The position numbers and the translations under genes were made by a program. The notes under the pieces are model-generated. The model ran no database searches. It was given only the letters and a program-made list of their open reading frames with translations, and was not told where the DNA came from. A DNA stretch of 61,324 bases, filler included, from Globobulimina sp. (lineage: Eukaryota), in NCBI GenBank assembly GCA_003354225.1. It is 13 parts of 13 records of this genome, joined end to end, with 100 filler letters (N's around TTAATTAATTAA, not from the genome) between each part and the next. Parts side by side here need not be neighbours in the genome. Positions count along the whole stretch, not along the records: positions 37,830 to 42,451 come from PIVH01001055.1; 12 more parts are not named here. One strand, written 5' to 3'. Shown here one piece after another: positions 9,366-56,708 of this stretch (position 1 is the first letter of the stretch; each line of letters begins with the position of its first letter).

Positions 9366-9465
9366 NNNNNNNNNNNNNNNNNNNNNNNNNNNNNNNNNNN
9401 NNNNNNNNNTTAATTAATTAANNNNNNNNNNNNNNNNNNNNNNNNNNNNNNNNNNNNNNNNNNNN

Positions 9466-18827: not shown

Positions 18828-18927
18828 NNNNNNNNNNNNNNNNNNNNNNNNNNNNNNNNNNNNNNNNNNNNTTAATTAATTAANNNNNNNNNNNNNNNNN
18901 NNNNNNNNNNNNNNNNNNNNNNNNNNN

Positions 18928-19437
18928 GAAAATCCGTTGGTTTTGGGCTATAATCCAAAGAATTGTGTCTTGTCACAGGATGTTGTGGATAAGTTAGAAT
19001 ATAAAAAAGAATTGATTGCAATCTTAGGTTGGCGGCTGAAGAATTATAATATGAAGAAACCAAATGATGCACTAAAAAAGAAGTTTATTGTGTATTGCCA
19101 TATGGTTCAGGTTTTGGTTTTGGATCCGATGACACCCGAATTAGAGACACTGTTTACGGTGATACCAAATAAGAAACCAATTATTTCATTTCAACAAATT
19201 TTTAGATTGTTCCCATCTGTGACTGATATATTTCTACGGAAAACGCAATTAAATTTGCGCATAGCATACAGAATACAGGATTTTATGAAAAACAATCCAA
19301 ATAATCAAATTGAAAGAATATTCTTTGGCAAAGAAACACGAATCGGCAAACTGCAAATACCGCCGTTACAAGAGATCTTAAAATCTGCCAATTTTGGATT
19401 CGTGGAAAGTGAGCAAATGGTCATTAAAAATGTATGA
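18928..19437 (+). CDS. C-terminal fragment of a hypothetical protein, possibly the same family as 30336-31389
   Basis: Open from the contig start. KKFIVYC...ISFQQIFRLFP loosely resembles the C-terminal region of the ART-like family. Confidence 0.5.
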   Translation, partial: ENPLVLGYNPKNCVLSQDVVDKLEYKKELIAILGWRLKNYNMKKPNDALKKKFIVYCHMVQVLVLDPMTPELETLFTVIPNKKPIISFQQIFRLFPSVTDIFLRKTQLNLRIAYRIQDFMKNNPNNQIERIFFGKETRIGKLQIPPLQEILKSANFGFVESEQMVIKNV

Positions 19438-19768
19438 TGGAAATTAAAAATGTAATTTAAAATATATTTTATTGTAATTATGTATTTGTTGTGTTCCTCC
19501 ATATTCGTGTTTGATTGTGATGTTTTGTTGGATATATTTTTTTGTGTTTATTGAGCGTAGATGTTGGTTATACCTGCAACGTAACGTTCAAAAAACCTGC
19601 AACGCAGATTGAAATCAAAAAGCAACATTAGAAAAGTGCAGAGTTAGAAGGTTAGCACCTCCACAATGTTTTGAAACACCTGACAAGCGACAACATAAAA
19701 ACAAATACAGTATATATTGATAACACAATTGCAATATATGAAAATTATCAAAGATGGAGAAACTGAGA

Positions 19769-22700
19769 TTATTCACCAGCATCATCCATTTCATCATAAT
19801 TTACATCGACATCAGTCACATCCGGACCGCCGGTGCCTAATCTCCTAAAATCTTTTTGTGTTTTATTTCGAACCGATAACGGTTTAACCGCAGATCTCGG
19901 GAAATATTCCAAATCATATTCTCTTTGTCTACAAAACAAGAAATTCGGCGAATGTGCTCTCAATTCTTCCGTCCAATATTGTATTAACTTTTCAATCTGA
20001 CACAACACCCAAAAAAACGGAATAAAAAATGGCCAGATTACTAAAAATGTGTAACACGAAATAATATTCGTCATCGCCTGAAATGGCGTCAACAAATTCC
20101 TCCGCATATCTTCCAACGTAATCGGTCTGAAACAAAACTTACAAAACAACGTTTTCAATGTTAAATGCTTTATAAATAACTTATCATAGACATTTAATTT
20201 GCGATTTTCCTCTGAATGTTTCCTTCTCGATTCCAAAATAGAATAATATTCGTTGGTAGACACAGCTTGTATCTCTCCGTTGCCATAGATGCCCGTAATG
20301 GTATTATAACAGCCGACATGATATATCCTCCAATCGTGATTCATTTTATATGGCAATATTGACAGTATATAGTATGCAAACACACGGCGACGAGTATTCA
20401 TGTGATTTATGGACACTATCTCATGTTTATGCGACGATTTGTTACAACAATTGCTGCCATACAACCTCTTCTGATTGACATAGGCGTAAATGTTTAAATG
20501 TTCTGGCGATATCATAGCCGGCATAAAATTCAGAATATGGCATATTAATCCAATAATAACCACCACTACATTTAGAGGCATGGGCATCACTCGCGGCGAA
20601 ATGGACAATTCGTGCGCGTACAATGCGGAAGTAAATGAAGTTTCAGCCTTCGCTTTTTGCCGCACACTGTTCATTGCGCCACTCATCAATGCAATTAATA
20701 GCGACATAAACATCCGCACGCCCAATATGGCAAAGACCATAGTCAATAATTGTGCGTACACACGGTAGTTTTGATAAAATGTGTCAATGGTTCCAACATT
20801 ACCGCCGCCAAATAATAGCTTAAAAAAAAATATCACCACATCATACAAATCAGTAAAGGACGTAGCTTGTTCGGTGTCTATATCAGAACTGAATAAATAC
20901 CAAATTGCAAATAAAAAGCCAGTGGTCACAATGATTATAATCACACCGAATTTCAACACTTCCATAATCATTGCACGTACCACACGTAATAATATACCAA
21001 AAAAACCGCCCGCAGACTCGAAATAAGACAATAACCGCATGGTTAACATCGCGATTTGCGTGGCCCACAACACATTGTATACTAATAATAATTGACTGTC
21101 AAAGGTCTCCACACAGACCTCATTGACCAGTAAACAATCCGTGTCTGTCGTGTTTAGATCGTCATTATAATTCAAACACGTTTCATTCCAAAAATATTCT
21201 ATTGTATCATTGCTACCGTCGAGCGTCAAACTGCCATCATATGGAATGGTAAAATTTTTGGCAACACATTTTAACCCCGTTTTGCTGTCCACATTGGACT
21301 CTGAAGCTGCAGTTACAGTCTCTTCATAAAACATGTCATGTCCGCTGAAACTATCAACATTCGAATCTTGTAACGATCTCCGTTCAGATTCCATCATTTC
21401 ATTATAATCGCACAGCAAATCTATGATTTCATTCTCTTTGCTGGATACCTCCGCAATGCAGCTCTCATTATATACCACTTTGCAGCTAAAAAAATCGGGC
21501 GGACACAGAATATCATCATTAGCCCGCAACCGGCGACGGAAAAATGATGATTCCGGTGGCAGATAATTATGCGTATGATCCTCAAATCCGACAATAAACC
21601 AAAACCGAATCCCAGCCAACACGCACCAGATAATACTAATGATGATATCCCACAAATTGGTGGCGCCATCCACTGAAAAATAAGCTCTGCCCAACGTATA
21701 AAACTGCATAAATTCAGCAAAGACAAAGCCCAAATTCATGAACCAAATGCATCGTTCGAACCAACCCATACTCGTTTTATACACTTGTTGATGCAAATTG
21801 TGCCTCGCCGACGAATTCAACGCAATCCACACAATAATACAGATCACATAACACGTAAAAAACAGCGAAATGCACCATTGATGTCCAAACGGAGTCAAAT
21901 AGAAATAGATGGGTTTCCGTAGCAATATTTTAAAGGCGTCGCGTAGATTTCTTTTCGGATTCTTGGTATGTGATAACATCTCAATATGTGGATTCAACGG
22001 ATTTGCCGTAAACCACGTATGCGTCACCATTCTATTCACGCGTTCCGTATTCAAAAATAGCGTGTTATGCTGTTCTAAGGCTAACTGAATCAACGAGATC
22101 TCCTTCATATACACGGGTATATTCATCAGCATTGTCAGCATAAAATCATCCTCAATGCTGGACACCTGTTCTGCTGCATATTCCTCATACTTTTTACTGT
22201 ACCCTTCCCACACACCATTCCGCGCTAAGTCATCCCTCGCATTTTCCTTCATAAAATGACTCAGAAATAAACAAGCAGGCACTATGAACCTCGTTCCCTG
22301 TATAACTTGCCGGCAAATCCAATCTAAATCAGAAGGCTTGGCCCTCCGTAGCTGCGTGCGATTATTATACAATATTTTCAACGACTCCTTATTGGGCATG
22401 GTCTTCAACAAAACGCCTAAAAAAGTCCACAATGAGCGCAAACCGCCTCTGGTGCGCAACAATTCAATCACAAACTTGCTCATTGGCTCGCCATAAGTCA
22501 CCAAATCGAAGGTGTTGAGGATCTCTTTCAACTCAAATCCCAAATCGCGAATCATAAACGGGTCCCTCGTCCGGCACTCCTTAAACAACTGCCGCCAATC
22601 AATCTTATTATCCACCATATTGTTCATCTTCTCTTCCTCTATAAACTGTGTCTTGGTTTTGGGTAACACGAATTTGGGAAATACCCTCCGTTTCGACTTT

Positions 22701-23539
22701 GCTTTCTGATATTCGTCGATCATTAATCGCTCGAATTCTGGCTCTGGTTCGTCCACATACGATACCGAACTCTGCGAATCCAACTCTTCCTCATCGATCT
22801 CTAACTGTTTCTTGTCTTTAATAGTCTGGTTCCAACCCGCTGGCTTCGGCAACTCTGTGATGCGCTGTATGTGCGTATCGCGTTGATTGTCATTCAAAAA
22901 CACCAACGACTGGCATTGCCAGGTCGGCCGATCCTTTTTATCCTCGATCAATATCTCTATAATGCTCGGCGTGATGCTCGATATTTGCCGCGCGACGATG
23001 GCCGAGATGTAGCGCACGCGATGCATGATATTCTCCCACCGAATGCACCAATTCTTAAACTCTTGGAACGCGACATCTTGCGTATAATCTTGCTCTCCGA
23101 TGCTCTCATTCAGCCGCATGCGGAAATACGCTGCGCGTTTCGTCAATAAATTGTAATATTTGCGCTCATTGAATTGGTTCTGCACTGCCAATTCGATCAA
23201 AACCTTATCGTGGCCGATATGCCACCAACTCGGCACTCGGGTCCATGACTGCGAGAACTGCTTCTTCCATTCTTGCAACCGCTCCTTGGATGAGGTAGCT
23301 TCCGTTTTGGCATATTTTAACTTGTCCGCATTGCCAAGCTTAGCCGGAGAGTTTGTTTTGTATTCGTTGTCGCTGTCCGTCAATGCGGAGGACTCGTTAT
23401 CTACTTCCTGATCACTGTCTGATTCGTTAGGGTCAGACTCGTCGCTGCTTTCATTGGCGAAATCCGCACCTAACTTATACGCAGGCGATAGTGCCCACGT
23501 TAGGAACGAGTCCCAATTCGGTAATTGTTTGGGACTCAT
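19769..23539 (-). CDS. TRP-family cation channel (1256 aa, no introns evident)
   Basis: Six-TM pattern with the S4-S5 linker (GILLRVVRAMIMEVLKF), pore region (LFGGG), S6 (LLIALM), TRP-box-like ETSF and MPMPLN (cf. LPPPFN). Confidence 0.85.
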   Translation of the reverse strand: MSPKQLPNWDSFLTWALSPAYKLGADFANESSDESDPNESDSDQEVDNESSALTDSDNEYKTNSPAKLGNADKLKYAKTEATSSKERLQEWKKQFSQSWTRVPSWWHIGHDKVLIELAVQNQFNERKYYNLLTKRAAYFRMRLNESIGEQDYTQDVAFQEFKNWCIRWENIMHRVRYISAIVARQISSITPSIIEILIEDKKDRPTWQCQSLVFLNDNQRDTHIQRITELPKPAGWNQTIKDKKQLEIDEEELDSQSSVSYVDEPEPEFERLMIDEYQKAKSKRRVFPKFVLPKTKTQFIEEEKMNNMVDNKIDWRQLFKECRTRDPFMIRDLGFELKEILNTFDLVTYGEPMSKFVIELLRTRGGLRSLWTFLGVLLKTMPNKESLKILYNNRTQLRRAKPSDLDWICRQVIQGTRFIVPACLFLSHFMKENARDDLARNGVWEGYSKKYEEYAAEQVSSIEDDFMLTMLMNIPVYMKEISLIQLALEQHNTLFLNTERVNRMVTHTWFTANPLNPHIEMLSHTKNPKRNLRDAFKILLRKPIYFYLTPFGHQWCISLFFTCYVICIIVWIALNSSARHNLHQQVYKTSMGWFERCIWFMNLGFVFAEFMQFYTLGRAYFSVDGATNLWDIIISIIWCVLAGIRFWFIVGFEDHTHNYLPPESSFFRRRLRANDDILCPPDFFSCKVVYNESCIAEVSSKENEIIDLLCDYNEMMESERRSLQDSNVDSFSGHDMFYEETVTAASESNVDSKTGLKCVAKNFTIPYDGSLTLDGSNDTIEYFWNETCLNYNDDLNTTDTDCLLVNEVCVETFDSQLLLVYNVLWATQIAMLTMRLLSYFESAGGFFGILLRVVRAMIMEVLKFGVIIIIVTTGFLFAIWYLFSSDIDTEQATSFTDLYDVVIFFFKLLFGGGNVGTIDTFYQNYRVYAQLLTMVFAILGVRMFMSLLIALMSGAMNSVRQKAKAETSFTSALYAHELSISPRVMPMPLNVVVVIIGLICHILNFMPAMISPEHLNIYAYVNQKRLYGSNCCNKSSHKHEIVSINHMNTRRRVFAYYILSILPYKMNHDWRIYHVGCYNTITGIYGNGEIQAVSTNEYYSILESRRKHSEENRKLNVYDKLFIKHLTLKTLFCKFCFRPITLEDMRRNLLTPFQAMTNIISCYTFLVIWPFFIPFFWVLCQIEKLIQYWTEELRAHSPNFLFCRQREYDLEYFPRSAVKPLSVRNKTQKDFRRLGTGGPDVTDVDVNYDEMDDAGE

Positions 23540-23654
23540 CGTGGCTATGTCTAANNNNNNNNNNNNNNNNNNNNNNNNNNNNNNNNNNNNNNNNNNNNTT
23601 AATTAATTAANNNNNNNNNNNNNNNNNNNNNNNNNNNNNNNNNNNNNNNNNNNN

Positions 23655-26600
23655 TTGTTGCCTAGGTTGCGGCCACCAAACTTCTGCTCATCCAAATACT
23701 TATTAGTACTGATGCCCTTTTCTAAAATAGCAATAACTCGCTCGCATAACACGTCCATCGAGGTGCCCTTGTCCTGCTTGCCTTGGATCACACCCACTTT
23801 CCCTTTGATGTGTATAGCGTGCGATAATACCCTCGGAAACACCCATTGCAACTCATTCAGCACTAAAATCGCATTCTTTTGCCACAAAATATTGTCGCTT
23901 TGCATCAAATGCACCAAATAAATGGTCAGAGAGCGATGCATGGATCGAAATTCAGTACAAAAGTCATCGTAAGACATACTAGTCTGAAACGAGTATTTGC
24001 ACGCTTCCAATTTGCTTAATTCCGCCATAAATAACGCCTTTTTCTCGCGATATTTCTCTAAAATCAACATAAAATCGCACAGAAACCGCCCCACTCTCCG
24101 CGATTCGGAGTACGTCGACGAGGATAAGATCTGATTAAAATTTCGTAAAAATTCATGTAAAAAATGAATCAAATAAAATCCCGGCACATTGTTATTAATC
24201 AATAACTCGATGAACTTTGCCGCATATTTCGCATCGATGTCAGAGGTAGTAATCCGTGGTAAAATACATTTAAATAAAAATACATCAAAATCCTCCCGAC
24301 CCTGTCCATCGGCACAAAACCATTCGTTTTTATGATATTTATTCGATTTGAATATAATGTCAATGGTTTTATTGACACTCTTCATCTGTTCTTCCTTATC
24401 TTTTTTCAATTCATTGCCAATCTCCACACAATTTTTCTTATCCTTCTTCATTTTACGTAGTTTCTCATACAAATCGTCATCATTATCATACGACTGCTTA
24501 TATTTATTAATCTTAATATCTTTCTCGTACTTTTTATATAAATCCTGCTGTCGTGCTATCTCTTTGTCGTATTCCGCCGCCGGGATAAATATATCGCATA
24601 CATCCAGCGACCAAAATATCGCGTAAAACCCCGCCGAAATGCCGGTAATAGCTCCATTCAACGCCAATGTCTCAGAAACCTCCTCGATATCAAACACAAT
24701 CTCTTTCCGAAACAACCGCAATAACATAAACGCGTAATTCGGCTTCATTTTGTATTCCAAAATCAGCTCTTTTAGGCTCGGATATTGCGCATATAACTCT
24801 TGCTTATACCGCGTGAAAATATAATTCTTCATAAATAGAAATAACTGCACAAACATATCGTTTGTAAGGTCGATTTGTGTGGGGATAATGTCGAATATTT
24901 GATTGCTGGCAATCTCGTTTGGGTTATAATCATAACTCAAACTCCGATGTACATTGTTCAACAAAATAAAGATCGGCATCAACATCTGATTGTTGATCAA
25001 TGTCTTGCTGATTTTGCGGATAATTTTACTTTTCCGACTGCTAAAATAATGCGAATATTTATTATCCAACTGCAGCACCACTTGTTTTAGCAACTCGCTG
25101 CCCGCCAAACACGACAACTGTTTGTATGTAATCACTTCGCCAAACGCCTCGATCTGCGTTAATTTCATAATGATACTCTTGAATATCAACAAATGATCGC
25201 AGTGACCCACACATAATTTATTAATCACATACTGCAAAATGGGCAATATATCACAGTCCAAAAACTGCTTAAAAAAATGCCCCGTAATATCGCACAACGC
25301 ACGAAACCAATCTTGGTAATACGTATCGCGCCGGATCTTCTGCGGGAATTTCTTATTATTCTCGCATTGGCACAAAATCTGCCAAATCAGCACATCGCGG
25401 TCCAAGTTGGTCAAATGGCGGAAGCCGTCCACCACGGTGCTCACGTTGCCGCTGTACGACTGCAACTGTTTAAGCACCAAATCAAACACCAACACCGGCT
25501 GCGAGTTGATGTACCGCGCAAACATTCGTCCCAATTTCAGGTTTTTCTCATTGTTCTCGTCCACGTGATAGCGCCGCAATAAGTACTTGGTGTCTTTGAT
25601 GGCGTCCTCGCGTTGGCATAGCAGCTCGCAATACGAGGAATAAATGACGTCTTTCCAATGCGAGTAGAACTTGAACCGGATTACGAAGTTGAATCTGGAT
25701 AATAAGTTCCATAAATCGCAGCTTAGACCGCTGTTGTTGTCGATGAGCGAGTACGACGCCAACAAGTTATAAATGATATTTTCGATCAGGTCGTCGCGTG
25801 GATGGTCCGCTTGGTCCATGGCATGGCATAATATGCGGCAGATCTTGCCGTATAGTATGGGCCTGCGGTATAGGTAGACGTTGATGTGGGAGATGATGGG
25901 CGCGATGATGTCGCATAAGGTGGATAAGGAAGGCATAGTTAGCGAGGGATCTAAGGGCGCGAAGGGTGAGGGGAGTGGAGCTGTGTCGTTGTTGGGCGAT
26001 AATATCATCCATATACTGCAATATTTGTTGTACAACGGCGTGATTATAGACTCTAACAAGTCCATTAAGGCCCAATTGATGAAGTGTTTGCTTTCGCATT
26101 TAATGTCCGATAAAATGTGCAGCAGCTTTTCAACGTTGGTCCAGTCGCCGCATTGTATCATATTTAGTAACAATTGGAAGATTTGCGAGGATTTGTGACT
26201 GGTGTGATATTCGCCGCGTTTTTTGTATAATATTTCTTCTTTTTTTAGCCTGGCTTCTTTTTGCTCGACTTTGTCGTTTAAATTTATGAAATTGATCAAC
26301 GTGGCGCGTTCTTTTTCGTTTTGCTCGAATTGCTTTCGCCATTTCTTGTGTTTTTGGATCAGATTACACTCAAAATGCGGCAATAAATCCGATAATGATA
26401 TGATATTATAATGGATCAAATGCGTTGTTAATATGTAGAGCGATTTCGGGGTTTGTTTGTTTCTCTGATTTGCAGCCTGATAATGTTTGAATTTAAAGCC
26501 TAAAATGGTGACAATATTAGACGGGATAAAATTGCGTAATATTTGTAATAATACGGCATTCGACGCATCATATTCCAATCCATGCAGTAATATATCGATC

Positions 26601-27556
26601 ACTCTTCACATATATACAGAAATAAAACCAAAAATAAGTATAAAATATCAAATGTTTGTGTAATTATATAACAATATCAGCGCAAGGATATAGTATAAGG
26701 CCACAATGAATACATTTGTTTTTGCAGATTTTAAGTGAGGTTCATACCGATTTGGATCCAGTTTAAACTGCCCGATTAGTTGAAATATTTTACTTTGTAA
26801 GCGGTTATCCGTGGCATCCAATGCATCCTTTTCATGCTGCTTCATATCCACATCTTGCTCGTCCTTGTCATTTTGCTGTATTTTGTGCTCCATTCGCGTG
26901 CTTTGTAGGTGTTCCCCGATGGCGGTGATCAATTTGGCAAAACCCTCAGATTCTTCAATTAATAAATTGAACTTATTTTGGACGTAATACAATCGGGTTT
27001 TGCGGCGCCGATCCAATGTGGAGATGGGGTCAATGTCCTTGGTTTTGGGGAGTTTGAGTTTGGTGAATAAGGACAAGGAATGGCAGGCTTCCGCATTCAA
27101 TTCGCGTTTCAATAAAGTTGGCTCGATCAATGGCGACAGGTTTAACACCAAAGACTCGTATTTTTGGCGATAGACAGCATACTCTGTTCGGGTCTTGCTT
27201 TTGCGGTTGGTTTTGAAGAGCTTGATTTTGGCCCAGTGCAAGGATAAAAGATTTAGAATTAATAATTGACAGTGGGTTGATATGTCCACTTGCAATGAAT
27301 TGATTAACACAAAGGCATTTATGCTAAAATTATTCCATAGTAAGTAGGCACTGAAGATATTGTTGAATAAGTCGTGTAAATTGGAGTGGGATATGAAGTT
27401 TTGATTTTCGGTGTGTTTGAGGATTGCGGTTCGTAATTCATCACATAAAACTTTTAAATTTCCATGCAAGGCGTTGCTGTTTAAAGCTCCCCAATCGTAT
27501 TTGGAAAATTCTTTTTCGTTGAATGTGGTGCGAAAAGGCGCTGATTTGCTTGACAT
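23655..27556 (-). CDS. THOC2: THO complex subunit 2; intron 26604-26747; 3' truncated
   Basis: TRLYYVQNKFNLLIEESEGFAKLI, LIGQFKLDPNRVIDILL, ILGFKF, FYAIFWSL..DIFIP and CILPR. A 144-nt GT-AG intron keeps the frame. Confidence 0.93.
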
Positions 27557-28381
27557 GGTTTTTGTGTGATGTCAGAAAGAGTTTTTTTATTGATGAAAAA
27601 ATAATAATTAAAAGAGGCAGAATATTAAATTGTGCAGAATCTGAACATTAATTCATAAAAATTCGTGCGATTTGTTTGTAGAGTACAAACAAACGAACAG
27701 TCGAACACAAAATATAAAATCCAGGAAAAAAAGATAAGCAAAAACAAACAAAAAAATTAAACAATAAAGAAAAACAACTGAAGCAAACCAAAACATAGTC
27801 AAACATATGAAAGAAACAATGGTCAAATGATTATATTAATATTCTTATATAATTTGGTGCGATTGATATGATTTTTAAACAGCATCTTATTGTATATAAT
27901 CAAATATTCATCCAACAATACATTGTTTCTTTGCTTTTGCTCAATCAATACAACAACAAAAAAACTATATTATATTTACATTTTTGCTGGAACAAAATGC
28001 GTTAATTTTTTAAATATTTTATTATTCAACAAAACTACTCTTAGAAGAACAAAAGCACACAGAACAACAAAAAAAAAAGTGTAAAATACTAATAGTATAA
28101 AAAATATATATTATATATGTTATATATTAGGAAATACATTCACATATTTTCTGTTAACAAAAGACAACACACACAAATATATAATTGTTGACCTATAAAA
28201 TTTTATATCCACAATTTCCTATAAAATGTATAATGGGATAATATCTAACATTTTTTTCAACAGATAATGTTCTTCTAATTTNNNNNNNNNNNNNNNNNNN
28301 NNNNNNNNNNNNNNNNNNNNNNNNNTTAATTAATTAANNNNNNNNNNNNNNNNNNNNNNNNNNNNNNNNNNNNNNNNNNNN

Positions 28382-37829: not shown

Positions 37830-38182
37830 TTGGTGCATCTTTTTGTTCTGTTAAATATTTCAAAATGCTTGCTTCAGACAATATATTTTCTTTAATATTC
37901 TGAAATTGAGTGCCATTAAAAACTGCAATTCTATTCTCATGTAAATGTTTGTTGGTCACTTTGATAACAACAGGGACATTTGTTGATTTTCCAAGTGCTT
38001 TATAAACACTACCTATGTAATTGTAATCAGTCGGATTGATTACGAGTGGTTTACTAATCGTATGTAAACAATCAAAAACAGAGGAAATATATACCTTGCA
38101 AAGAATCTGCGAGTTTTATCACATTGATATATCCAGCCTTGTTAATTGATGCTAGTAGTTCTCTATCAAACTGGGCGGACAT
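37830..38182 (-). CDS. Protein kinase N-lobe, truncated; intron 38013-38094
   Basis: After splicing an 82-nt intron: KLADSLQGSVYKA...VVIKVT...ENILSEASILKYL (VAIK lysine and helix C Glu). Confidence 0.75.
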
Positions 38183-38268
38183 TATTGAGGAAGAAGTAAA
38201 ATGTTGTGGTTTTTTTGAATTTTGATGTCTCAAAGTTTAATAATCATGGCACTCTAATTACATCACAT

Positions 38269-39801
38269 ATGGCCTCAGTAGAATTACGATCTGTTGACAA
38301 CGACGATAAAGCGTTATTAAAAGATTCTCATCATTTCTATTACACAGAAATCCAAGACCAGACAACACCGAAAGATGTTTTATTTCATGAGGACTCAACT
38401 GATGAGACCCAAACACCTAAAAAAATGCCTCCCAAAACATACGTTTCAAGCATGCTTTCTTTTTTTGGTTATGATCAAGAAGCCAAAGCAACTGTGTTGT
38501 CCACAGCAATCAATATATCAAACTCAAACATTGGTGCTGGCATTTTAGGTTTGTTGCTAACATATTTTTATCTGTTACCACAAGTATATATATATATATA
38601 TACTTGTATAGGTTTGCCGTACGCCATGGCCCACACCGGCTGGATAACCGGCATTATCTTAGCCGGCGTATTCACGTTCACTTCCATTGTCGTCATGCAT
38701 TTCCAAATGATAATTGGCCGCAATTTAGGTGGCACAGCTTCATACGCAATCGCATGCAAAGCCATAGTGCCAAAATTTCAAATATTTGCGGACGCATCCA
38801 TTGGTTTGATGTGTTTTGGTGCCATTTGTGCCTATTTCATTATAATTGGCGATAATATGTCTGCAGTTATGGCCCACAGAGATTTCAATTTAAGCTCAGA
38901 CCATATATTGACAAAAAGACAACTATGGATCGCAGTGTTTTCAATGTTGTTCATTATTCCAACTACTTCTTTACGTAAGTTAGATGCATTGAGATTCACC
39001 TCTGGCATCGCTTTATTATGCTTCAGCTATGTCTTAATCATATTTATTGTATATACTTTTATCGACGAGTTGCATTTCGGCGATCCGGATTTCGATCATC
39101 TGGGCGATGTCCATGGCTTTGAAGGTGATTTTTTGGACGTTTTCAAAGCTATTCCAATTTGGTTGTTTGCATACGGTGGTCAATCATTGTCGTTTACCGC
39201 CAGCACAGAGTTGCAAAACAATACTCCGCAAAGGATAAATTGCACAATTTTATTAGCATATTTCTTTGTGACTACAGTATATACAACAATTGCTTTGTTG
39301 GGTTATTATGCGTTTGGTGACTTTGTTGAGTCGAATGCTTTGGTTAATTTCCCATCCAATGACGAAGCAATAATGATTGTTCGCATTGGGTTATCGATTG
39401 CTGTGGCATTTTCTGTGCCGGTTTTAGCCAATCCATTGAAGCATTCTTTAGCCTCTTTGTTATGGAGGAAGAACCGCGACGGTAATGAGGATGCGTCCAC
39501 ATTGCCAACAATTAAGTTTTTTGGGATATCGTATGCTATTGTTTTGGGTGCTTTTTGTATCTCGATGTTTATTGATGATTTAGGAATTGTTTTGTCAGTG
39601 ATTGGAGGCACAGCGGGAGTGGCTGTCCGGTTGATTATACCTGCGGTGTTTTACTATTTCTCTGATAATATGGATTGTGATGCAATATCTAACAATCCGT
39701 GTCATAATACGAAAAGGATTATTGCTGTGGTTTTTTTTGTAACTGGTGTTGTGTTGGTTCCTTTGTCTCTCACTGTCACTATAATTGATTTTTATAATTG
39801 A
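38269..39801 (+). CDS. AAAP/SLC38-type amino acid transporter; in-frame 63-nt intron 38549-38611
   Basis: NSNIGAGILG|LPYA, SLRKLDALRFTS and GYYAFG, with multiple TM helices. Confidence 0.92.
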   Translation: MASVELRSVDNDDKALLKDSHHFYYTEIQDQTTPKDVLFHEDSTDETQTPKKMPPKTYVSSMLSFFGYDQEAKATVLSTAINISNSNIGAGILGLLLTYFYLLPQVYIYIYTCIGLPYAMAHTGWITGIILAGVFTFTSIVVMHFQMIIGRNLGGTASYAIACKAIVPKFQIFADASIGLMCFGAICAYFIIIGDNMSAVMAHRDFNLSSDHILTKRQLWIAVFSMLFIIPTTSLRKLDALRFTSGIALLCFSYVLIIFIVYTFIDELHFGDPDFDHLGDVHGFEGDFLDVFKAIPIWLFAYGGQSLSFTASTELQNNTPQRINCTILLAYFFVTTVYTTIALLGYYAFGDFVESNALVNFPSNDEAIMIVRIGLSIAVAFSVPVLANPLKHSLASLLWRKNRDGNEDASTLPTIKFFGISYAIVLGAFCISMFIDDLGIVLSVIGGTAGVAVRLIIPAVFYYFSDNMDCDAISNNPCHNTKRIIAVVFFVTGVVLVPLSLTVTIIDFYN

Positions 39802-40051
39802 TTTACACTGACTTATTATAGATATATCCAGCTCATTCGTTTGGATTTGTATAAATGAATTCAATTCCTTATTAACTTAAAAAATGAGTCATCACAGTAA
39901 AAAAAACAAAAAATGATAAAATGCGCAATAAATTTCTATCTTTATTAAGTAGGTAATCAAACATAATAAAAGAGAAACATTGCCTTTGTATGTTGTTTAT
40001 TAACTATACATTTCGCGAAATTGCGTACAATAATCAAATGTATATTATAAT

Positions 40052-40243
40052 TTAACCGAATTGATGACACTCACATCGACTTCGACAATACCGATGTCTT
40101 GATGCACAACCCCATGTAAATGGATTTGCAACACATAACCAATACGCAGCACAACAGGTCGTGCAAAAAGCATTCGCACTCGACACAGAACTGAATAATA
40201 ATGATACCACCAACATTAATGTCAATAAGTGTAATACTTTCAT
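40052..40243 (-). CDS. Small secreted Cys-rich peptide (63 aa, 8 Cys)
   Basis: Clean signal peptide ending VSSA, then a 40-aa mature part with 8 Cys. The ORF is an island of higher GC in AT-rich intergenic DNA. Confidence 0.75.
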   Translation of the reverse strand: MKVLHLLTLMLVVSLLFSSVSSANAFCTTCCAAYWLCVANPFTWGCASRHRYCRSRCECHQFG

Positions 40244-40354
40244 TTTTTTATTTTTTGATTATTAACAGTGTAAATAGATATATTGTGTGAAAGAAGAGTG
40301 AGAAAGGATGTTATTAAAGTTGAAGTTTGAATGAAAAGCTGAAAAGCGGACAAA

Positions 40355-42451
40355 TTAATAAAATTCATTACAAGAACAAACCCCATTTTCAAACACATGC
40401 ACACGATTTGCGTCAGAAACTATAATTTTTCTATTTTCAGTCAACGATGCTAACCTAACAAAGTCATGACAATCGCTGCATATTCTTAAATTCTTATTAA
40501 TTACAATAACGTATTCATTCGCGGTACTCAACAAACCAAACGACAACGCGATCTTTTCTGAATGTCGCCAAAGTACATATTCCTCCGTTTCGTCACTACG
40601 TAACTCTCTTGTTACTAAACTATAATTATGTTCATATCCATGCTCACTTTTAAATTTCTCACATAATTCGCCCAACTTACTATCAATTAACGCATACTCT
40701 TTCTCCTTCTCTCCAACATTCCGTAAGTACTCATTCCCTGCATAGAACTTATGCAATTTTCCATAAACATCAATCTCTGAAAACCCAGGCTCTTTTTTCC
40801 ACCCATTCACCTTCATCAAATTTCTTATTCTTTTAACTTTGTCATACTCCCCATTTGAAGCATAGATATTTCTCAACATCACCGAGGCCGCAGCCATCCT
40901 GGCATCGTATTTCTTGTTCCCTTTGAATCGTAGTATCATTTCATTATACACTGTTTCAGCCATATCCTGATCCTTATATTTAATACACCCATTCAACAAA
41001 GACCCCCACATCACATCATCATACCCGCCAACATCCTCATTGCTCGTTTCATATTCAATGATTATCTCAAATGCTTTGCGTAAACTTCCTTTCCTCGATA
41101 AACAATCAACAAACGCTGCAATGACGTAACAATTATATCTAACATCGACATTTATTTGCTGCCATATTTCCTGAGCTTGTCCATCATCGCCGGAATAACT
41201 GCAGGCAATTAACAGTGCCATATATGTCTTATCATTCGCAACCAAATCAGTTTCATTTTGCATGCTGTCATAGAGTTGTTTTGCTTTGCTAAGATTACCC
41301 AGTTTGCCATGGGAATGAATCATGGCGTTCCAAATGGATATTTGCGATCTGTATTTGTTAAAATCATATTTGCGAAGTTTGTTGAATATATCCTCGCAAA
41401 TATGTAACATCCCGCACTTTGCGTACATGTTAATAAGGTTTACAATGATCGAGGTATCATTCAATATACTTTTGTTTTGGTAGAGATTCTGTTTCAGTTT
41501 GTCATGCATTGCTTGTCCAAAATAAAAAGATGTTCCATTGGTGCACGCTCGGAATAATATTTGATAGGATGTGAGTGTCGGCGACAATGATGTATTTGCG
41601 AGAATATGTTTAAATAATTCAATACATTGCGAATTTGCTCTATTTGTAACATACGCCGCTAACATAACATTAATACAAATTATATTCTTTTCACAGTCAA
41701 TATTATTGAATATATCAACTGCATTGTTTAAATCGCCACATTTGCCATACATATCAATCAAAGCAGTGTTTGCAATCACATTGTCAGCCAACAAATGCCT
41801 AATTTTATCATGAATTTCTTTTCCTTTTGTTAACATATTTGCATCGCCGCAGGCATTCAACGCAACAATATGTGATATTTCATTTAATTTATATTTACCA
41901 TTTAACGCAATCTCATCATACAATTCCAATGCATTCACACCTCCACTGCTCTTGACATAGGCTGTCATCATCGCGTTAATAGTGATTATATCTTTTTTAT
42001 CATCGCTCATTGCATTGTATATATCGATGGCGGTTTGTATTTGCAATGAATGTCCATAGAAATCAATCAGTGAATTTAATAACGCAGCATGTGTTTCTGC
42101 AGTTATTTGAGATATAATTTTATCCGCAATCTGTGTACCTTTCTCATAATCGTTCATATTTTTAGCTGCTTTAATGGCCATTGTATGACATATATCGTCT
42201 AATTCCAAGCCAACATTATCATATAACACCAACGCTTCCTCATATTCTTCGTTTTTAACATACGCGTTCATCATAGCTACAATAGCAACCACATCGATTT
42301 CATGTTTGTTGAATGAATGAAACACATCCAATGCACTCGTAATACTCAAACACTTTCCATATGCGATGATCAATGCTGTTTTAATGAAATGTGTTTTGCC
42401 GTCGGTACAGCAAATATAAGCGTCGCATAACAATGAATGGATGAATTGCAA
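40355..42451 (-). CDS. PLS-like PPR protein with E/E+ region and DYW cytidine deaminase domain; 5' truncated
   Basis: PPR repeats (NTALIDMYGKCGDL, WNAMIHSHG), PG box (KKEPGFSEI), HSEKIA, KNLRICSDCH and H.F.NG.CSCNEFY. Confidence 0.95.
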   Translation of the reverse strand: MQFIHSLLCDAYICCTDGKTHFIKTALIIAYGKCLSITSALDVFHSFNKHEIDVVAIVAMMNAYVKNEEYEEALVLYDNVGLELDDICHTMAIKAAKNMNDYEKGTQIADKIISQITAETHAALLNSLIDFYGHSLQIQTAIDIYNAMSDDKKDIITINAMMTAYVKSSGGVNALELYDEIALNGKYKLNEISHIVALNACGDANMLTKGKEIHDKIRHLLADNVIANTALIDMYGKCGDLNNAVDIFNNIDCEKNIICINVMLAAYVTNRANSQCIELFKHILANTSLSPTLTSYQILFRACTNGTSFYFGQAMHDKLKQNLYQNKSILNDTSIIVNLINMYAKCGMLHICEDIFNKLRKYDFNKYRSQISIWNAMIHSHGKLGNLSKAKQLYDSMQNETDLVANDKTYMALLIACSYSGDDGQAQEIWQQINVDVRYNCYVIAAFVDCLSRKGSLRKAFEIIIEYETSNEDVGGYDDVMWGSLLNGCIKYKDQDMAETVYNEMILRFKGNKKYDARMAAASVMLRNIYASNGEYDKVKRIRNLMKVNGWKKEPGFSEIDVYGKLHKFYAGNEYLRNVGEKEKEYALIDSKLGELCEKFKSEHGYEHNYSLVTRELRSDETEEYVLWRHSEKIALSFGLLSTANEYVIVINKNLRICSDCHDFVRLASLTENRKIIVSDANRVHVFENGVCSCNEFY

Positions 42452-53008: not shown

Positions 53009-56000
53009 ACAACAACAATACATTTTATTTATACTGCACTAAAAGCAGTGAAGCACCGCGCGAGAGAGTACAGTGTTTAGAAAAGTTTAAATAAAGATTA
53101 GTTAAATAATAATAAAGTTAGTAGACTATACTCAGTCGCTAACACGCTGCTTGACTGCTTTTTTAAATTGATCAAAATTCAAATTTATACACTCGTCAGG
53201 TAAAGAATTCCATAATTTACAAGATATAATGAAAAAACTCTTATTACAACGGTCCCGGGTAAAAACTGGAATATAATATTGTTGTGAATTATTTAAGATG
53301 CATGTAGCTCTCGTTCTCACATTGAATATTTTCTGTTGAATGACATCTTCTGGTAGATAACGGAGCTGATAGTGATATTTGTATAATAATAATAGTCTCC
53401 TTTCATTGACAACATTTTCAATCTTCTTCCATCTCAAATGACATAATATTTCCTCATATGTCGATTGATAATCATTTGTTGCAAGTCTGGCAGCATATTT
53501 GTGTACGGACTCAAATTTACGTTTGTCTTTAGCATAGACTGGCCACACAACGGGAATGCTATACAGTAGAGATGGCAAAATGGTTTGGCAATAGAGTTTC
53601 TTAAAAACATATTGAGGTACAAACCGTCTGCAGGTTCGAGAAAAAGCTCCAATTGCACATTTACATTTTAAAGCAGTTTTGGCAGAATGTTCGGTCCATG
53701 ATAACTTCGGATCGAGCCAGACACCCAAATATTTGTAACAGTTGACTTGTTCTATACGAAAATCTTGTATGGCAGGAGTGAATTCCAAAGATGGTTTTGG
53801 ATTTGAGTCCGACAATGTAAACAACATATACTTTGTCTTGGAAATATTGAGTGTAAGACCAAGATACTTGTAGCAGTTTGTAATCAATTTTAAGTCATGT
53901 AGCATATCTCTTTGTTCAATCAATGTTTCTGCCTTTTTGAAATATGCCAGGTCGTCTGCATAACCAATAGAGAAAGCAGAATTTGATAACAATAATTGTT
54001 GAACAGGAGCAGTGTATGCATTAAACAGAAGTGGGCCCAAAATTGAACCCTGAGGTACACCAGAAATTACATCACGTTCTGAAGACAAGGAGCCACCAAC
54101 TCGCACACAATGAGTACGGTTTGATAAATAGGAATGTAGCCAGTTGAGGACACCAGCTGGTACTTGATAGGTAGAATCCAAAACTGTGAGCAGTCGACCA
54201 ATAGGAACTTTATCGAAAGCTTTGGACAGATCAAAAAATACTCCAACCACCTTGGTTGTCCCAACACAAGCATTAAACATGGCCAGCACTTTATGTTCTA
54301 ATAAGGCTAAGGCATCTTCTGTGGAGCGATGGCTTCGAAACCCATATTGTAAAAAGGGAAGCTTCTCATCAATAAGAGGTCCAAGGCGACGCAACACACA
54401 GCGTTCACATAACTTTGAAATAATGCATAAAAGGCTGACAGGACGATAGTCAACAGGCTTAGATGAATTGGCAACTTTCGGTATTGGAGAAACAGTGGCT
54501 TTTTTCCATTCAGAAGGAAACTGGCCTTCCACCAGAGACTTGTTTATGAGCAAGGTGACAGATGAAGCAATAATAGGAGCTGTATTAACCAACATGGAAG
54601 CCGTAATACCATCTGGGCCACATGATTTGGTCGTATCTAAGTACATAAGTTGCTCAAGAACCCAGTCATCATCACATAACCAATCAAAATCGATCTCCGC
54701 TGCAGGTTTATGAGGAGGGAGAGCACTAGGATCAGAAAATACAGTGTCATACTGGTCAGCCAGGAGATTGGCTTTCGCAGGGTTTGACACAACAACATCT
54801 CCATTAGCATCCTCAAGATCTGGAATTCCATTTACTTTAGCTTTCCCACCCACTCGTTTAAGAGTTTTCCAAAATTTTGATTGATTGGTGGCGCAGGATG
54901 TAAAAAGATCTCCATAGTAAGACTTTTTGGCAGCAGAAATGTCTTTTCTTAATGTCTTTCGTAACATAACAAATTTTGAATGATTTTGTGGGGTGGGGTT
55001 TGATTTCCACCTCCTGAATGCCTTGTTTCTTTCTTTTAAAAGTTGTTTAATCAGTGGAGTAAACCAACCTTTGTCACATTTCGCCCAGGGCACATTTTTC
55101 TTTGGTATAAATTGATCTGCAACAGTTAGGAAACATGTTTTCCATCGAGACCATGCTTGCTCCATATTTGTAGCTGTTGATACAAGTCCACACAAATCGA
55201 GATCAAATAGAATTTGGTTAATAGCGGACCAATCAGCACGATCGTAAAGCCAAACTGGCCGCTTTCCTTTGACTGGAAGGTTAACTTTGGCTTCCACATG
55301 AAACCAAACTTCAAAATGTGGATGTTGTATGTGGTTTTCAATGGGGCATCCCAAACCCCAGGTGACAATTGAAGGAGAAAAAAGCAGGTCCAAAGCACTA
55401 TTCCCATGTGTTGGTATATTGACCAATTGATGTAGACCAAATGGTTGACAAAATGATTGAAATTTGTAAGAATTTTGAGATAGGGCGTCCCAATTAAAGT
55501 CACCAGTGAGAAAAGTTTGACACTTGCTTTGGTCCAAACCAGATAGAAAGTTAGTAATACTGTCACAAAATTGTTCTTCTTCTTCTCCACTTTGATTTGG
55601 TGGTCTATAAGCTGTGGCAATAATTATGGGGACACGCTTTGTTCGAAATTGAATGGCCAACAACTCAGCATTCGGTTCGTCTCTGAGTCGTTTAGGAGAG
55701 AGTGATGTTTTGCAATAGATACCTACACCACCACCATTTTCGTTCCGGTCGCGTCTGAATAGAGTGTAACCAGGAATGTCAAAAGTCTCTGTAATATTTG
55801 TGCCCAATTTTGTCTCATTCAAACAAAAAGCAGCATAATCGTAGGACTGCAACAAAGCATAAATTTCAGAATGTTTGCCTCTGAGTGAATTAATATTAGC
55901 ACATCCAACCAACAAAGAGCCATTTGGAGGCAATTTCGTATCAGGAAGTGGAGGGCTAGGAGTTGGCGAGGGAGGACGGTCAAAAGTTAGATCAAATCCA

Positions 56001-56608
56001 GTCAATAAAGTTGCATCATATCGAGAGTCACAGTTATGACAGTAGTATGGTAAACCATTATATCGTACAGACCAAAGGCCACGACGGTCCAAGTCAGAAC
56101 ATTTTGCATGGACTTTCTCAGAACAGACAACACAAGTAAAAGGGTTAGATCTTCCATCTATTTGACGTTCACATTTGATACAAGTTGGCTTTGGGCCAGG
56201 ATTCAAAGCTATGTCACCACAAAGAAGTAATAGTAATAATCGATGTACATAGCTGGGATATACTTTTGAGATAGTAGTAGAGACAGGTCGGTAGCGACGG
56301 CCGTAATCAAGAGGGCACACAGTAAACGGGCAGCCATTATCAACGTTCAAAGAGGCCCGACCGAAAACAACACACGATAAAATGAAGGCAAAGGGCAACC
56401 AGACGAAAATTCTCATAATTAATAAGGAAATTGAATAAAGTCGAATTTCAATGAAAGACACAATGAAAGTTCACCAGATTGTCAAGAATAATAGTTGAGA
56501 TCGATAGTCAATTAGTGAAGTACTTTTTAGGCTTTAAAAATGAAGAAAAGTTCTATTTCAAAGTAAAGTAAATTTGTTAGCGAGAGCAGACACAACAAGA
56601 CAGCGGCC
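53009..56608 (-). mobile_element. Non-LTR retrotransposon (CR1/L2-group LINE), apparently near full length
   Basis: Intact APE-RT ORF. The 3' UTR has a short stem-loop, AAATAAAA and a (TTG)n tail at 53009-53050. Confidence 0.9.
53132..56461 (-). CDS. LINE ORF2: 2A-like peptide, PHD finger, AP endonuclease and reverse transcriptase
   Basis: GDIALNPGP; C..C...C..C...H..C...C..C; NINSL, LNETKL, GGGV, GDFN; YRPVSLL, DLSKAFD, GVPQGSILGPLLF, YADD, YKYLGV. Confidence 0.96.
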   Translation of the reverse strand: MSFIEIRLYSISLLIMRIFVWLPFAFILSCVVFGRASLNVDNGCPFTVCPLDYGRRYRPVSTTISKVYPSYVHRLLLLLLCGDIALNPGPKPTCIKCERQIDGRSNPFTCVVCSEKVHAKCSDLDRRGLWSVRYNGLPYYCHNCDSRYDATLLTGFDLTFDRPPSPTPSPPLPDTKLPPNGSLLVGCANINSLRGKHSEIYALLQSYDYAAFCLNETKLGTNITETFDIPGYTLFRRDRNENGGGVGIYCKTSLSPKRLRDEPNAELLAIQFRTKRVPIIIATAYRPPNQSGEEEEQFCDSITNFLSGLDQSKCQTFLTGDFNWDALSQNSYKFQSFCQPFGLHQLVNIPTHGNSALDLLFSPSIVTWGLGCPIENHIQHPHFEVWFHVEAKVNLPVKGKRPVWLYDRADWSAINQILFDLDLCGLVSTATNMEQAWSRWKTCFLTVADQFIPKKNVPWAKCDKGWFTPLIKQLLKERNKAFRRWKSNPTPQNHSKFVMLRKTLRKDISAAKKSYYGDLFTSCATNQSKFWKTLKRVGGKAKVNGIPDLEDANGDVVVSNPAKANLLADQYDTVFSDPSALPPHKPAAEIDFDWLCDDDWVLEQLMYLDTTKSCGPDGITASMLVNTAPIIASSVTLLINKSLVEGQFPSEWKKATVSPIPKVANSSKPVDYRPVSLLCIISKLCERCVLRRLGPLIDEKLPFLQYGFRSHRSTEDALALLEHKVLAMFNACVGTTKVVGVFFDLSKAFDKVPIGRLLTVLDSTYQVPAGVLNWLHSYLSNRTHCVRVGGSLSSERDVISGVPQGSILGPLLFNAYTAPVQQLLLSNSAFSIGYADDLAYFKKAETLIEQRDMLHDLKLITNCYKYLGLTLNISKTKYMLFTLSDSNPKPSLEFTPAIQDFRIEQVNCYKYLGVWLDPKLSWTEHSAKTALKCKCAIGAFSRTCRRFVPQYVFKKLYCQTILPSLLYSIPVVWPVYAKDKRKFESVHKYAARLATNDYQSTYEEILCHLRWKKIENVVNERRLLLLYKYHYQLRYLPEDVIQQKIFNVRTRATCILNNSQQYYIPVFTRDRCNKSFFIISCKLWNSLPDECINLNFDQFKKAVKQRVSD

Positions 56609-56708
56609 NNNNNNNNNNNNNNNNNNNNNNNNNNNNNNNNNNNNNNNNNNNNTTAATTAATTAANNNNNNNNNNNNNNNNNNNNNNNNNNNNNNNNNNNN
56701 NNNNNNNN

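Follow-up and report, generated by a model that had tools for sequence, protein, structure and literature searches.

The gene and its contig

Analysis of N runs and piece lengths resolves the window, by which we mean the whole stretch of 61,324 nucleotides that was analysed, into 13 contigs of 4616–4633 bases each, with linkers of the form N44-TTAATTAATTAA-N44 between them. One of these contigs carries a gene for a pentatricopeptide repeat (PPR) protein with E motifs and a DYW cytidine-deaminase domain, alongside an amino-acid transporter gene, a small ORF and the fragment of a further gene (Table 1). We regard the PPR-DYW gene as truncated at its 5′ end because its reading frame runs, still open, off the edge of the contig and into the linker. 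The gene has a GC content of 0.35, that of its contig is 0.352 and those of the remaining 12 pieces range from 0.295 to 0.40; in GC, GC3 and codon use it lies inside the spread seen across 12 other ORFs of the window. No additional PPR-DYW copy was found by Pfam among 44 ORFs of the window, which were picked by length and non-overlap from 96 frames of at least 90 residues, and a tblastn search of the window with the protein (E up to 10) returned the gene itself and three chance-level matches only. A search of the whole window with Rfam gave 0 matches.

Table 1. Features of the contig and of the PPR-DYW protein that it encodes, in coordinates of the window
Feature	Coordinates	Strand	Details
Gene-bearing contig	37830..42451	.	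4622 bases; linkers on both sides; delimited by N runs and piece lengths
5′ fragment of diverging gene	37830..38182	-	runs off the contig; one 82-base GT..AG intron (38013-38094); 'kinase' of the initial annotation
Amino-acid transporter gene	38269..39801	+	Aa_trans 4.9e-51; one 63-base GT..AG intron (38549-38611)
Small ORF	40052..40243	-	about 63 residues; between transporter and PPR gene
PPR-E-DYW ORF	40355..42451	-	698 codons plus stop (40355-40357), single frame; 5′ end open
PPR array, residues 1-478	41018..42451	-	L-motif tail, then S-P-L-S-P-L-S-P-L-S-P2-L2-S2; 13 motifs of 32-40 residues
E1 and E2 motifs, residues 479-553	40793..41017	-	Pfam E_motif plus hand-set register
DYW cytidine-deaminase domain, residues 554-698	40358..40792	-	PF14432 6.4e-28; gating-domain insertion included
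PG box, P555-G556	40784..40789	-	present; P in 8/19 and G in 13/19 clade rows
HSEK, residues 630-633	40553..40564	-	H630 catalytic-zinc ligand, E632 catalytic glutamate; align to H892 and E894 of OTP86
CSDCH, residues 658-662	40466..40480	-	C658 and C661 catalytic zinc, H662 structural zinc; align to C920, C923 and H924 of OTP86
C-terminal HVFENGVCSCNEFY	40358..40399	-	H685, C692 and C694 complete the structural zinc site; terminus E-F-Y for D-Y-W

An initial annotation of this DNA had described the contig as bearing a kinase and a transporter with short introns like those on the other contigs. The transporter is borne out. Over 390 residues it shares 70% identity with P0130 (labelled Bolivina argentea), in an alignment that spans the splice junction, and it is 71% identical to P0125 (labelled N. 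stella, that is, Nonionella stella). The kinase is not: in the unspliced frame of the diverging fragment, Pfam at E up to 1 matched no kinase family. The short introns are present on this contig, but the "other contigs" of the comparison are unrelated pieces joined by linkers. Next to the transporter, the small ORF has a hydrophobic N-terminus, is cysteine-rich and matches no Pfam family; in run X2, summed contig depth over this region (40000-40309) reaches 18,677-27,384.

The introns also bear on how public sequencing runs are to be read. Both are missing from contigs of four runs, each belonging to a different study: the 63-base transporter intron is skipped, and the joint from 38009 to 38092 (cut +3) of the diverging gene fragment is present. 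We read the run contigs as transcripts because these neighbouring introns are missing. Record 13 of run X2 covers 40290-42451 colinearly, with 18 differing letters and no gap, and continues for 509 letters past the end of our contig; it reveals no splice joint within 40355..42451. In a second run, a contig reaches 411 bases past that end. The contigs of run X6 show an in-frame 3-base deletion in the PPR frame. With the run contigs taken as cDNA-like on the strength of the absent introns, the PPR-DYW gene is apparently transcribed.

PPR array, E motifs and DYW domain

The initial annotation had called the protein a plant-type PPR-DYW factor with a PG box, an intact HSEK...CSDCH deaminase centre and the variant terminus EFY, and each of these elements was confirmed. 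Pfam identifies PPR repeats (PPR 5.7e-34, PPR_2 1e-27, with PPR_1 and PPR_3 also matched), an E motif (PF20431 E_motif, 2.6e-08, 34.4 bits against a cut-off of 27.3, residues 523-560) and a DYW deaminase domain matched over its full length (PF14432 DYW_deaminase, 6.4e-28, 96.9 bits against a cut-off of 24, profile positions 1-93 of 93, residues 605-698). With the register placed by hand against a plant consensus, the PPR motifs sort into three classes that recur as S-P-L, which makes this a PLS-type array. Pairs of motifs from one class (18 pairs) score 32.9 on average and pairs from different classes (48 pairs) score 7.1; for 11 of 12 motifs the best-scoring partner is of the same class. The parts of the protein follow one another as in the PLS-class PPR-E-DYW factors of land plants, namely PLS triplets, P2-L2-S2, E1, E2 and DYW.

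The fifth and last residues of the eight P and S motifs are the positions at which the plant PPR code is written. Five of the eight carry T/D, N/D, N/N or T/N, which are base-specifying pairs in that code. The other three carry V/D, V/Q and N/T, pairs that are not known to have a meaning in the plant code. With this register and S2 set opposite position -4, the code would specify G at -16, U at -13, a pyrimidine at -12, A at -10 and a pyrimidine at -6.

In sequence searches of the PDB, the DYW domain matches 9kfx (1.1e-28), 7o4e (2.6e-24) and 7w86 (8.8e-21). Of these, 7o4e (like 7o4f) is a structure of OTP86 (Arabidopsis At3g63370), 7w86 is DYW1 and 9kfx is a synthetic PPR-DYW protein with RNA. 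Our protein resembles all three in its PG box, its HxE...CxxCH and H...CxC motifs, its Zn1 and Zn2 ligands, its catalytic glutamate and its gating lysine, and it differs from OTP86 in having two extra stretches, of 3 and 4 residues, in the region of the gating domain. In particular, alignment to OTP86, whose zinc ligands and catalytic glutamate are assigned in PMC7611903, shows that the catalytic glutamate and all seven zinc ligands are present; H685, C692 and C694 correspond to H947, C954 and C956, and K653 and R656 likewise align to OTP86 residues with roles assigned in that paper. H630, E632, C658 and C661 are invariant in 230 of 230 aligned rows, comprising the 19 rows of the clade described below and 211 others. 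All eight positions of the two zinc sites and the glutamate, the structural zinc site thus included, are kept in 19 of 19 clade rows.

Another difference lies at the C-terminus. Land-plant factors end in DYW, DFW or DSW, whereas this protein ends in CSCNEFY and so lacks the literal tripeptide; the terminus aligns to D958-S959-W960 of OTP86, with a glutamate at the position of D958. The last residue is tyrosine in 17 of the 19 clade rows, compared to tryptophan in 183 of the 211 other rows. We treat the D-Y-W tripeptide as giving the family its name and not as defining it, because OTP86 itself ends in DSW, because the remaining 28 of the 211 other rows also lack the tryptophan, and because PMC13386178 describes the tripeptide as variable in non-plant DYW domains.

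The AlphaFold2 (AF2) model of the DYW domain (pLDDT 93.6, pTM 0.87) has the predicted fold of a cytidine deaminase with the gating-domain insertion, and includes a long helix at domain residues 44-65. Foldseek matches the model to 9kfx_A (E 4.4e-15, TMq 0.84), 7o4e_B (TMt 0.88) and 7w86 (TMt 0.86). Sequence, profile and fold all put the protein in the DYW family.

Relatives and organism of origin

Relatives for the DYW region were collected by an exhaustive HMMER search, since a word search gave only five proteins. For the protein as a whole, most of the 120 matches listed are plants, and the named land plants among them are 24-31% identical to our protein over its full length; within the DYW part, land-plant identity is 31-40%. 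The closest relatives, which carry the N. stella label or come from ENA contigs, are 36-49% identical overall and 50-69% identical in the DYW region. At least eight distinct PPR relatives are labelled N. stella, four of them with a DYW domain. A metagenome scan with the PPR-DYW protein gave 28 loci, whose best segments are only 18-39% identical, with no orthologue and nothing that completes the 5′ end among them.

The initial annotation had proposed a phylogeny of DYW domains, and the careful tree that we built, in which the bootstrap had not settled (correlation 0.942), pairs the window protein with P0144 at 100/97 and places it in a clade of 19 rows at 97/90. This clade holds four of four N. 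stella rows (EukProt EP01083; P0002, P0121, P0151 and P0155), the ENA proteins P0005 with P0144, P0122, P0145, P0146 and P0148-P0150, and seven further rows (P0152, P0157, P0161, P0164, P0165, P0167 and P0170); it holds 0 of 22 named land plants and 0 of 2 rotifers. The split of the window protein from the 22 named plant rows is weakly supported (57/85), and the careful tree lacks a 14-row clade that the quick trees had shown. The rotifer domains group on their own at 98/88 (100/99 with one further row). Named rows of the tree exclude Naegleria, Physarum, Acanthamoeba, fungal and paradinid sequences.

The N. stella and ENA members of the clade have in common with our protein the run VINKNLRIC.DCH, Y-ending termini and a PLS array. 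At 36-69% identity they are paralogues or orthologues, and none of them is this very gene in this very organism. P0005 and P0144, which are 49% and 65-69% identical to our protein, are each listed with 12,082 bases as the length of the longest contig, and together they look like its orthologue in another assembly; the two are split within the S2 motif, where the frame in the window is continuous. Of the 16 fifth and last residues in the eight P and S motifs, 12 are identical to those of P0005, compared to 52% identity overall, and these code residues look constrained for specificity between our protein and this likely orthologue. The gene is thus part of a multi-copy clade in foraminifer-labelled data, with Y in place of W as its C-terminal residue.

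Plant-like DYW proteins in non-plant hosts have precedents, of which Naegleria gruberi, Acrasis, Physarum polycephalum and the rhizarian paradinids were compared by description. The Physarum proteins are mostly of LS type (PMC4758236), whereas ours is of PLS type, and paradinid and fungal DYW domains are described as sharing a two-residue deletion (PMC11946409). The bdelloid rotifers Rotaria sordida (P0016) and R. magnacalcarata (P0082) also have PPR-DYW proteins, with about 31% full-length identity to ours; their termini are variant too (GHF, DHF), yet their domains fall in a clade of their own.

Land-plant factors have plant hosts, whereas the host of this protein is a non-plant and probably foraminiferal genome, as the initial annotation had supposed. 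We tentatively assign it to foraminifera because the nearest named relatives of both the PPR-DYW protein and the adjoining transporter are labelled Nonionella stella and Bolivina argentea, and named land plants lie far off.

Proposed function and its alternatives

We favor, with moderate confidence, the reading that a foraminiferan carries this gene in its nucleus, or else that a very close associate does whose transcripts predominate in data labelled as foraminiferal, and that the gene encodes a site-specific C-to-U editor of mitochondrial RNA. The product is an all-in-one PLS-class PPR-E1-E2-DYW protein. If it works like the factors of land plants and Naegleria, its array would bind a single organellar transcript or a small number of them, with one base presumably read by the fifth and last residues of each P or S motif. 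The DYW domain would then sit over a cytidine a few bases downstream, where a zinc-activated water together with E632 would deaminate the cytidine to uridine. The likeliest site of action would be the mitochondrion. By a crude count, full-length clade members have basic N-termini with much serine and threonine and few acidic residues (the first 50 residues of P0002 hold 9 K/R and 0 D/E); the N-terminus of our own protein lies beyond the contig end.

Two alternatives concern the origin of the gene. That land-plant DNA contaminated the assembly, a danger which the initial annotation had itself named, is hardly credible. The family is overwhelmingly a land-plant one, and plants dominate the matches listed; however, their low full-length identity, the placement of 22 of 22 named plant rows outside the clade, the GC content of the gene and its neighborhood, which has a foraminifer-like transporter and introns of 63 and 82 bases, led us to reject this explanation. 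It is more conceivable, if still quite unlikely, that the contig comes from another eukaryote that accompanies foraminifera, for instance a prey organism, a symbiont or a small animal. The foraminiferal labels come from transcriptomes of field-collected cells, and the transporter proteins labelled N. stella and B. argentea belong to a single 90% cluster; cross-contamination or a shared associate is therefore possible. The transcriptomes behind the named relatives are also huge, with protein numbers above 228,000 and 304,000, and the runs that contain the stretch bear three different organism labels. A counterweight is the number of distinct N. stella-labelled PPR relatives, which points to an organism with good coverage and not to contamination at trace level, and to this can be added that the contig resembles the other 12 in composition and codon use and that rotifer DYW domains group apart.

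The other alternatives accept the gene and question what its product does. It may be a sequence-specific organellar RNA-binding factor acting, for instance, in stabilisation, processing or cleavage, in which the DYW domain is kept for structure, partner binding or some other activity and no editing takes place; we consider this unlikely, although it is the rival that we take most seriously. The terminal tryptophan, a tyrosine here and in most of the clade, is reported to be indispensable in vivo for DYW1 and PpPPR65, while W960A reduces the activity of OTP86 (PMC7611903); the literature that we found on foraminifera reports no C-to-U editing. Against this, the zinc ligands, the catalytic glutamate and the DYW-specific lysine and arginine are all conserved across the clade, and a catalytic centre conserved so widely is hard to account for without catalysis. 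Tyrosine could still stack on the zinc-binding histidine as tryptophan does, and OTP86 has a variant terminus of its own. A more distant rival moves the protein outside the mitochondrion, where it would edit or bind, for example, RNA of stolen diatom plastids, as the initial annotation had suggested, cytosolic RNA or viral RNA. Some foraminifera steal diatom plastids and keep them working for months, and N. stella, the label of the closest named relatives, is one that keeps kleptoplasts. We nevertheless judge this improbable, given that the N-termini of full-length relatives resemble simple basic presequences and that protist DYW proteins have been tied to mitochondrial C-to-U editing in Naegleria and Physarum (PMC4758236) and in paradinids (PMC11946409). 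Its boldest form, that foraminifera turned a plant-type PPR-DYW family to non-mitochondrial transcripts and with it edit or repair the RNA of stolen diatom plastids, is a long shot that we rate marginally lower again; the kleptoplast habit of N. stella is the one point in its favor.

The preferred reading of a mitochondrial editor would follow a known path, in that it was the finding of DYW-type PPR proteins in Naegleria that prompted the discovery that its mitochondria edit C to U (PMC4758236). Editing in paradinids, published in 2025, is reported as the first C-to-U editing in Rhizaria (PMC11946409), and a 2026 survey counted 31 DYW domains in Rhizaria, with the species not given in its main text (PMC13386178); these 31 may already include foraminifera. 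Our search of the literature on foraminifera and Reticulomyxa found no paper describing PPR-DYW genes or C-to-U editing in foraminifera. The foraminiferal mitochondrial-genome paper PMC10127745 worked with DNA only, and its available text mentions neither "pentatricopeptide" nor C-to-U editing. Foraminiferal mitochondrial genomes have been assembled from DNA alone and serve barcoding and phylogeny (PMC10127745, PMC8589990).

A clade in foraminifer-labelled data that looks transcribed, is catalytically intact and occurs in multiple copies yields a concrete editing prediction for foraminiferal mitochondria. Presence of the gene, as read from its sequence, predicts but does not demonstrate C-to-U editing of mitochondrial RNA in these protists. 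The Y-terminal variant would offer a natural test of how important the terminal tryptophan is to the DYW fold. If the prediction holds, particular C positions of foraminiferal mitochondrial genomes may read differently in the mRNAs; if it fails, the clade would represent a conserved deaminase centre put to another use.

The DYW frame and its deaminase centre

Our analysis of the 698-codon frame confirms that it encodes a PPR-DYW protein, as the initial annotation had claimed. Pfam matched PPR (5.7e-34), PPR_2 (1e-27), E_motif (2.6e-08, which exceeds the cut-off) and DYW_deaminase (6.4e-28), the last at residues 605-698 and across the entire profile. The motifs named in that annotation are all present: the PG box (P555-G556), HSEK (630-633), CSDCH (658-662) and the terminus CSCNEFY. 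The frame continues open to the contig end, so the gene is 5'-truncated. No second PPR-DYW copy was found within the window by Pfam searches of 44 of its ORFs or by a protein-versus-window search. The window is made up of 13 pieces of 4616-4633 bases each, sorted by falling length, and features on different pieces have no physical linkage. Elsewhere in it, the frame with reverse transcriptase looks like a LINE-like retrotransposon.

Features of the window (positions along the whole stretch)
Feature	Coordinates	Strand	Remarks
PPR-DYW frame	40355-42451	-	single open frame, 698 codons plus stop; piece 37830-42451
Intron in transporter	38549-38611	+	63 bases, GT..AG; contains a (TA)n run
Intron in diverging gene fragment	38013-38094	-	82 bases, GT..AG
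Small ORF	40052-40243	-	~63 residues; between transporter and PPR gene
THO complex subunit 2 gene	23657-27571	-	at least 2 frames; Tho2 6.2e-52, THOC2_N, Thoc2; piece GC higher, 0.37
Long open frame	19772-23554	-	1261 codons, filling most of the highest-GC piece (0.40); no Pfam family matched
Endonuclease/exonuclease/phosphatase plus reverse transcriptase frame	53135-56470	-	1112 codons, open; RVT_1 6.4e-30, Exo_endo_phos 1.9e-08
Linkers, N44-TTAATTAATTAA-N44	4634-4733, 9366-9465, ... to 56609-56708		between pieces

Residue roles were taken from PMC7611903 and transferred through the PDB-search alignment of the window protein with OTP86, an Arabidopsis PPR-DYW reference. By this alignment, H630, C658 and C661 (OTP86 H892, C920 and C923) would bind the catalytic zinc (Zn1), and E632 (E894) would be the catalytic glutamate. 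K653 (K915) corresponds to the DYW-specific gating lysine and R656 (R918) to a conserved arginine, while H662, H685, C692 and C694 (H924, H947, C954 and C956) would hold the structural zinc (Zn2). The window protein differs from OTP86 at the extreme C-terminus, with E696 for D958 and Y698 for W960, a tryptophan that PMC7611903 reports as important for function. In our trees, the window's DYW domain and its closest rows form a 19-row clade. Seventeen of these rows end in Y, against 183 of the other 211 aligned rows that end in W, so a terminal Y is conserved within the clade and is no sign of decay.

A PDB sequence search returned three relatives: 9kfx, a synthetic PPR-DYW protein (1.1e-28), 7o4e, the OTP86 DYW domain (2.6e-24), and 7w86, DYW1 (8.8e-21). 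The AlphaFold2 model for residues 540-698, for which a 44-row alignment was used, has a mean pLDDT of 93.6. Among PDB entries, Foldseek matched it best to 9kfx_A (E 4.4e-15, TMq 0.84), 7o4e_B (TMt 0.88) and 7w86 (TMt 0.86). Every family feature tested was found except the literal DYW tripeptide, which we treat as name-giving, not defining.

Relatives, neighbours and host

Among the best 120 of 1008 matches in a full-length protein search, the top ones are 36-48% identical, named land plants 24-31% and rotifers 31%. The best named ones are EukProt proteins labelled Nonionella stella, a foraminiferan (P0001, P0002, P0006, P0021, P0034, P0121, P0151 and P0155), and the others at the top are ENA proteins. 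When the E2-DYW part was searched exhaustively with HMMER, 2116 proteins were found at E<=0.001 and only 14 at E<=1e-30, the best being P0144 (69% identity). Another database protein, P0005, is 49% identical in the PPR part, and both records give 12,082 bases as their longest contig. Taken as a pair, P0005 and P0144 look like the orthologue in another assembly, split inside the S2 motif, where the window frame is continuous. An intron or a frameshift may account for the break, or it may have arisen in gene calling.

DYW trees were built from 293 sequences: the DYW query matched 253 of them, and the 230 with a near-complete domain were retained (23 dropped). A 66-row set held all 26 non-plant-side rows, 13 of a neighbouring grade, 22 named plants and 5 others. 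The 19-row clade, which includes all four N. stella rows, has support of 98 in FastTree (230 rows), 93 in a quick IQ-TREE and 97/90 in a careful IQ-TREE under LG+C20 (both 66 rows). A 14-row clade of the window, seven ENA, four N. stella and two further rows has 96 and 95 in the first two and is absent from the careful tree, in which one long ENA row moves. Values from the careful tree come from a bootstrap that had not settled (correlation 0.942): the window pairs with P0144 at 100/97, two rotifer rows form a separate clade at 98/88, and a weakly supported branch (57/85, 55% of bootstrap trees) has all 22 named land plants on the same side. The tree is unrooted and holds no named Naegleria, Physarum, Acanthamoeba, fungal or paradinid sequences, so it is silent on donor and direction of transfer.

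The adjoining gene, the transporter of the initial annotation, encodes an amino-acid transporter (Aa_trans 4.9e-51). It shares 71% identity with a fragment labelled N. stella and, over 390 residues, 70% with a protein labelled Bolivina argentea, the latter alignment spanning the splice junction. It diverges from a gene fragment across a common region of ~90 bases; a Pfam search of the fragment's unspliced frame left its earlier 'kinase' label unconfirmed. The PPR frame's GC (0.353), GC3 (0.355) and codon use (r 0.62-0.84) fall inside the range of 12 other window ORFs. Land-plant contamination is excluded by the distance of the plant matches, the foraminifer-like transporter and this match in composition and codon use. 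A caveat is that field-collected cells yielded the very large transcriptomes behind the foraminiferal labels, and that N. stella- and B. argentea-labelled transporter proteins (P0125, P0129 and P0130) fall in one 90%-identity cluster, which may point to cross-contamination, or to an associate common to both, in these two field transcriptomes. A co-sampled organism is thus a possible source, although we consider the host quite probably a foraminiferan.

Public sequencing runs from four studies also contain the sequence; they carry three coded organism labels, and no run is on record as RNA. Contigs from four runs all pass directly from 38009 to 38092 and from 38550 to 38614, skipping the 82-base intron of the gene fragment and the 63-base intron of the transporter. 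Intron-free contigs are what cDNA gives, and because both introns are missing we infer that these are transcript assemblies. The same runs cover the PPR frame colinearly. Record 13 of run X2 (2671 letters) spans 40290-42451 without gaps, differing at 18 letters; run X6, ~4-5% different, has an in-frame 3-base deletion. The available part of the gene therefore lacks introns, and the 3' UTR is ~65 bases. Record 13 extends 509 letters beyond the contig end and record 7 of run X1 411 letters, which implies at least ~170 further upstream codons, in agreement with the roughly 190 residues of P0005 ahead of its aligned part.

The small ORF has a hydrophobic N-terminus and many cysteines, and matched no Pfam family. 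Summed contig depth over 40000-40309 is 18,677-27,384 in X2, 2,435-4,553 in X6 and 497-840 in a further run, X8, and roughly 0-80 elsewhere on the contig, the flanking bin 39845-39999 excepted. The ORF may be a very abundant secreted-peptide transcript, or a repeat.

Motif array and proposed function

With the motif register fixed by hand and its phase taken from a plant consensus, the available architecture reads L-motif tail, then S-P-L-S-P-L-S-P-L-S-P2-L2-S2-E1-E2-DYW. Same-class motif pairs (n=18) average 32.9 versus 7.1 between classes (n=48) in ungapped BLOSUM62 scoring of the first 28 residues, and for 11 of 12 motifs the best partner belongs to the same class. The three motif classes are real, and their arrangement is plant-like PLS.

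In the plant PPR code, P and S motifs read one base each through their 5th and last residues, and S2 lies opposite position -4 relative to the edited cytidine. Among the eight P and S motifs, five have pairs that are base-specifying in plants (T/D, N/D, N/N, T/N and N/N), and the remaining three have V/D, N/T and V/Q. Code positions are identical to those of P0005 at 12 of 16 sites, against an overall identity of 52%, a mild hint of a conserved target.

By analogy, each P and S motif would read one base through these residues, and E1/E2 and DYW would then be positioned over the target cytidine for deamination, with S2 opposite -4. By a crude residue count, the N-termini of full-length clade members are basic, Ser/Thr-rich and acid-poor, which would fit a mitochondrial presequence. 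We lean toward a role in mitochondrial C-to-U editing. In the 230-domain alignment, all 19 clade rows conserve the seven zinc ligands and the glutamate; a non-editing RNA-binding role seems unlikely to us. Targets outside the mitochondrion, including the kleptoplast RNA raised in the initial annotation, appear highly improbable.

Land plants have DYW-type PPR proteins, and scattered cases are described in Naegleria, Acrasis, Physarum, Acanthamoeba, Malawimonas, fungi and rotifers (PMC4758236, PMC11946409, PMC13386178, in the passages shown). Most Physarum DYW proteins are LS-type according to the available text of PMC4758236, whereas the window protein is PLS-type. Within Rhizaria, paradinids are reported to have PPR-DYW transcripts and C-to-U editing, the latter previously unreported in rhizarians according to that study (PMC11946409, 2025), and 31 DYW domains have been counted, with species named only in a supplementary table (PMC13386178, 2026). 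Foraminiferal mitochondrial genomes, assembled from DNA alone, encode 14-15 proteins (PMC10127745); 'pentatricopeptide' is absent from that source, and C-to-U editing is unmentioned in the passages shown. Full-text searches of the literature on foraminifera, Reticulomyxa and Rhizaria for DYW, pentatricopeptide proteins or RNA editing yielded no account of PPR-DYW genes or C-to-U editing in foraminifera. In this lineage the gene makes editing an easily testable prediction.
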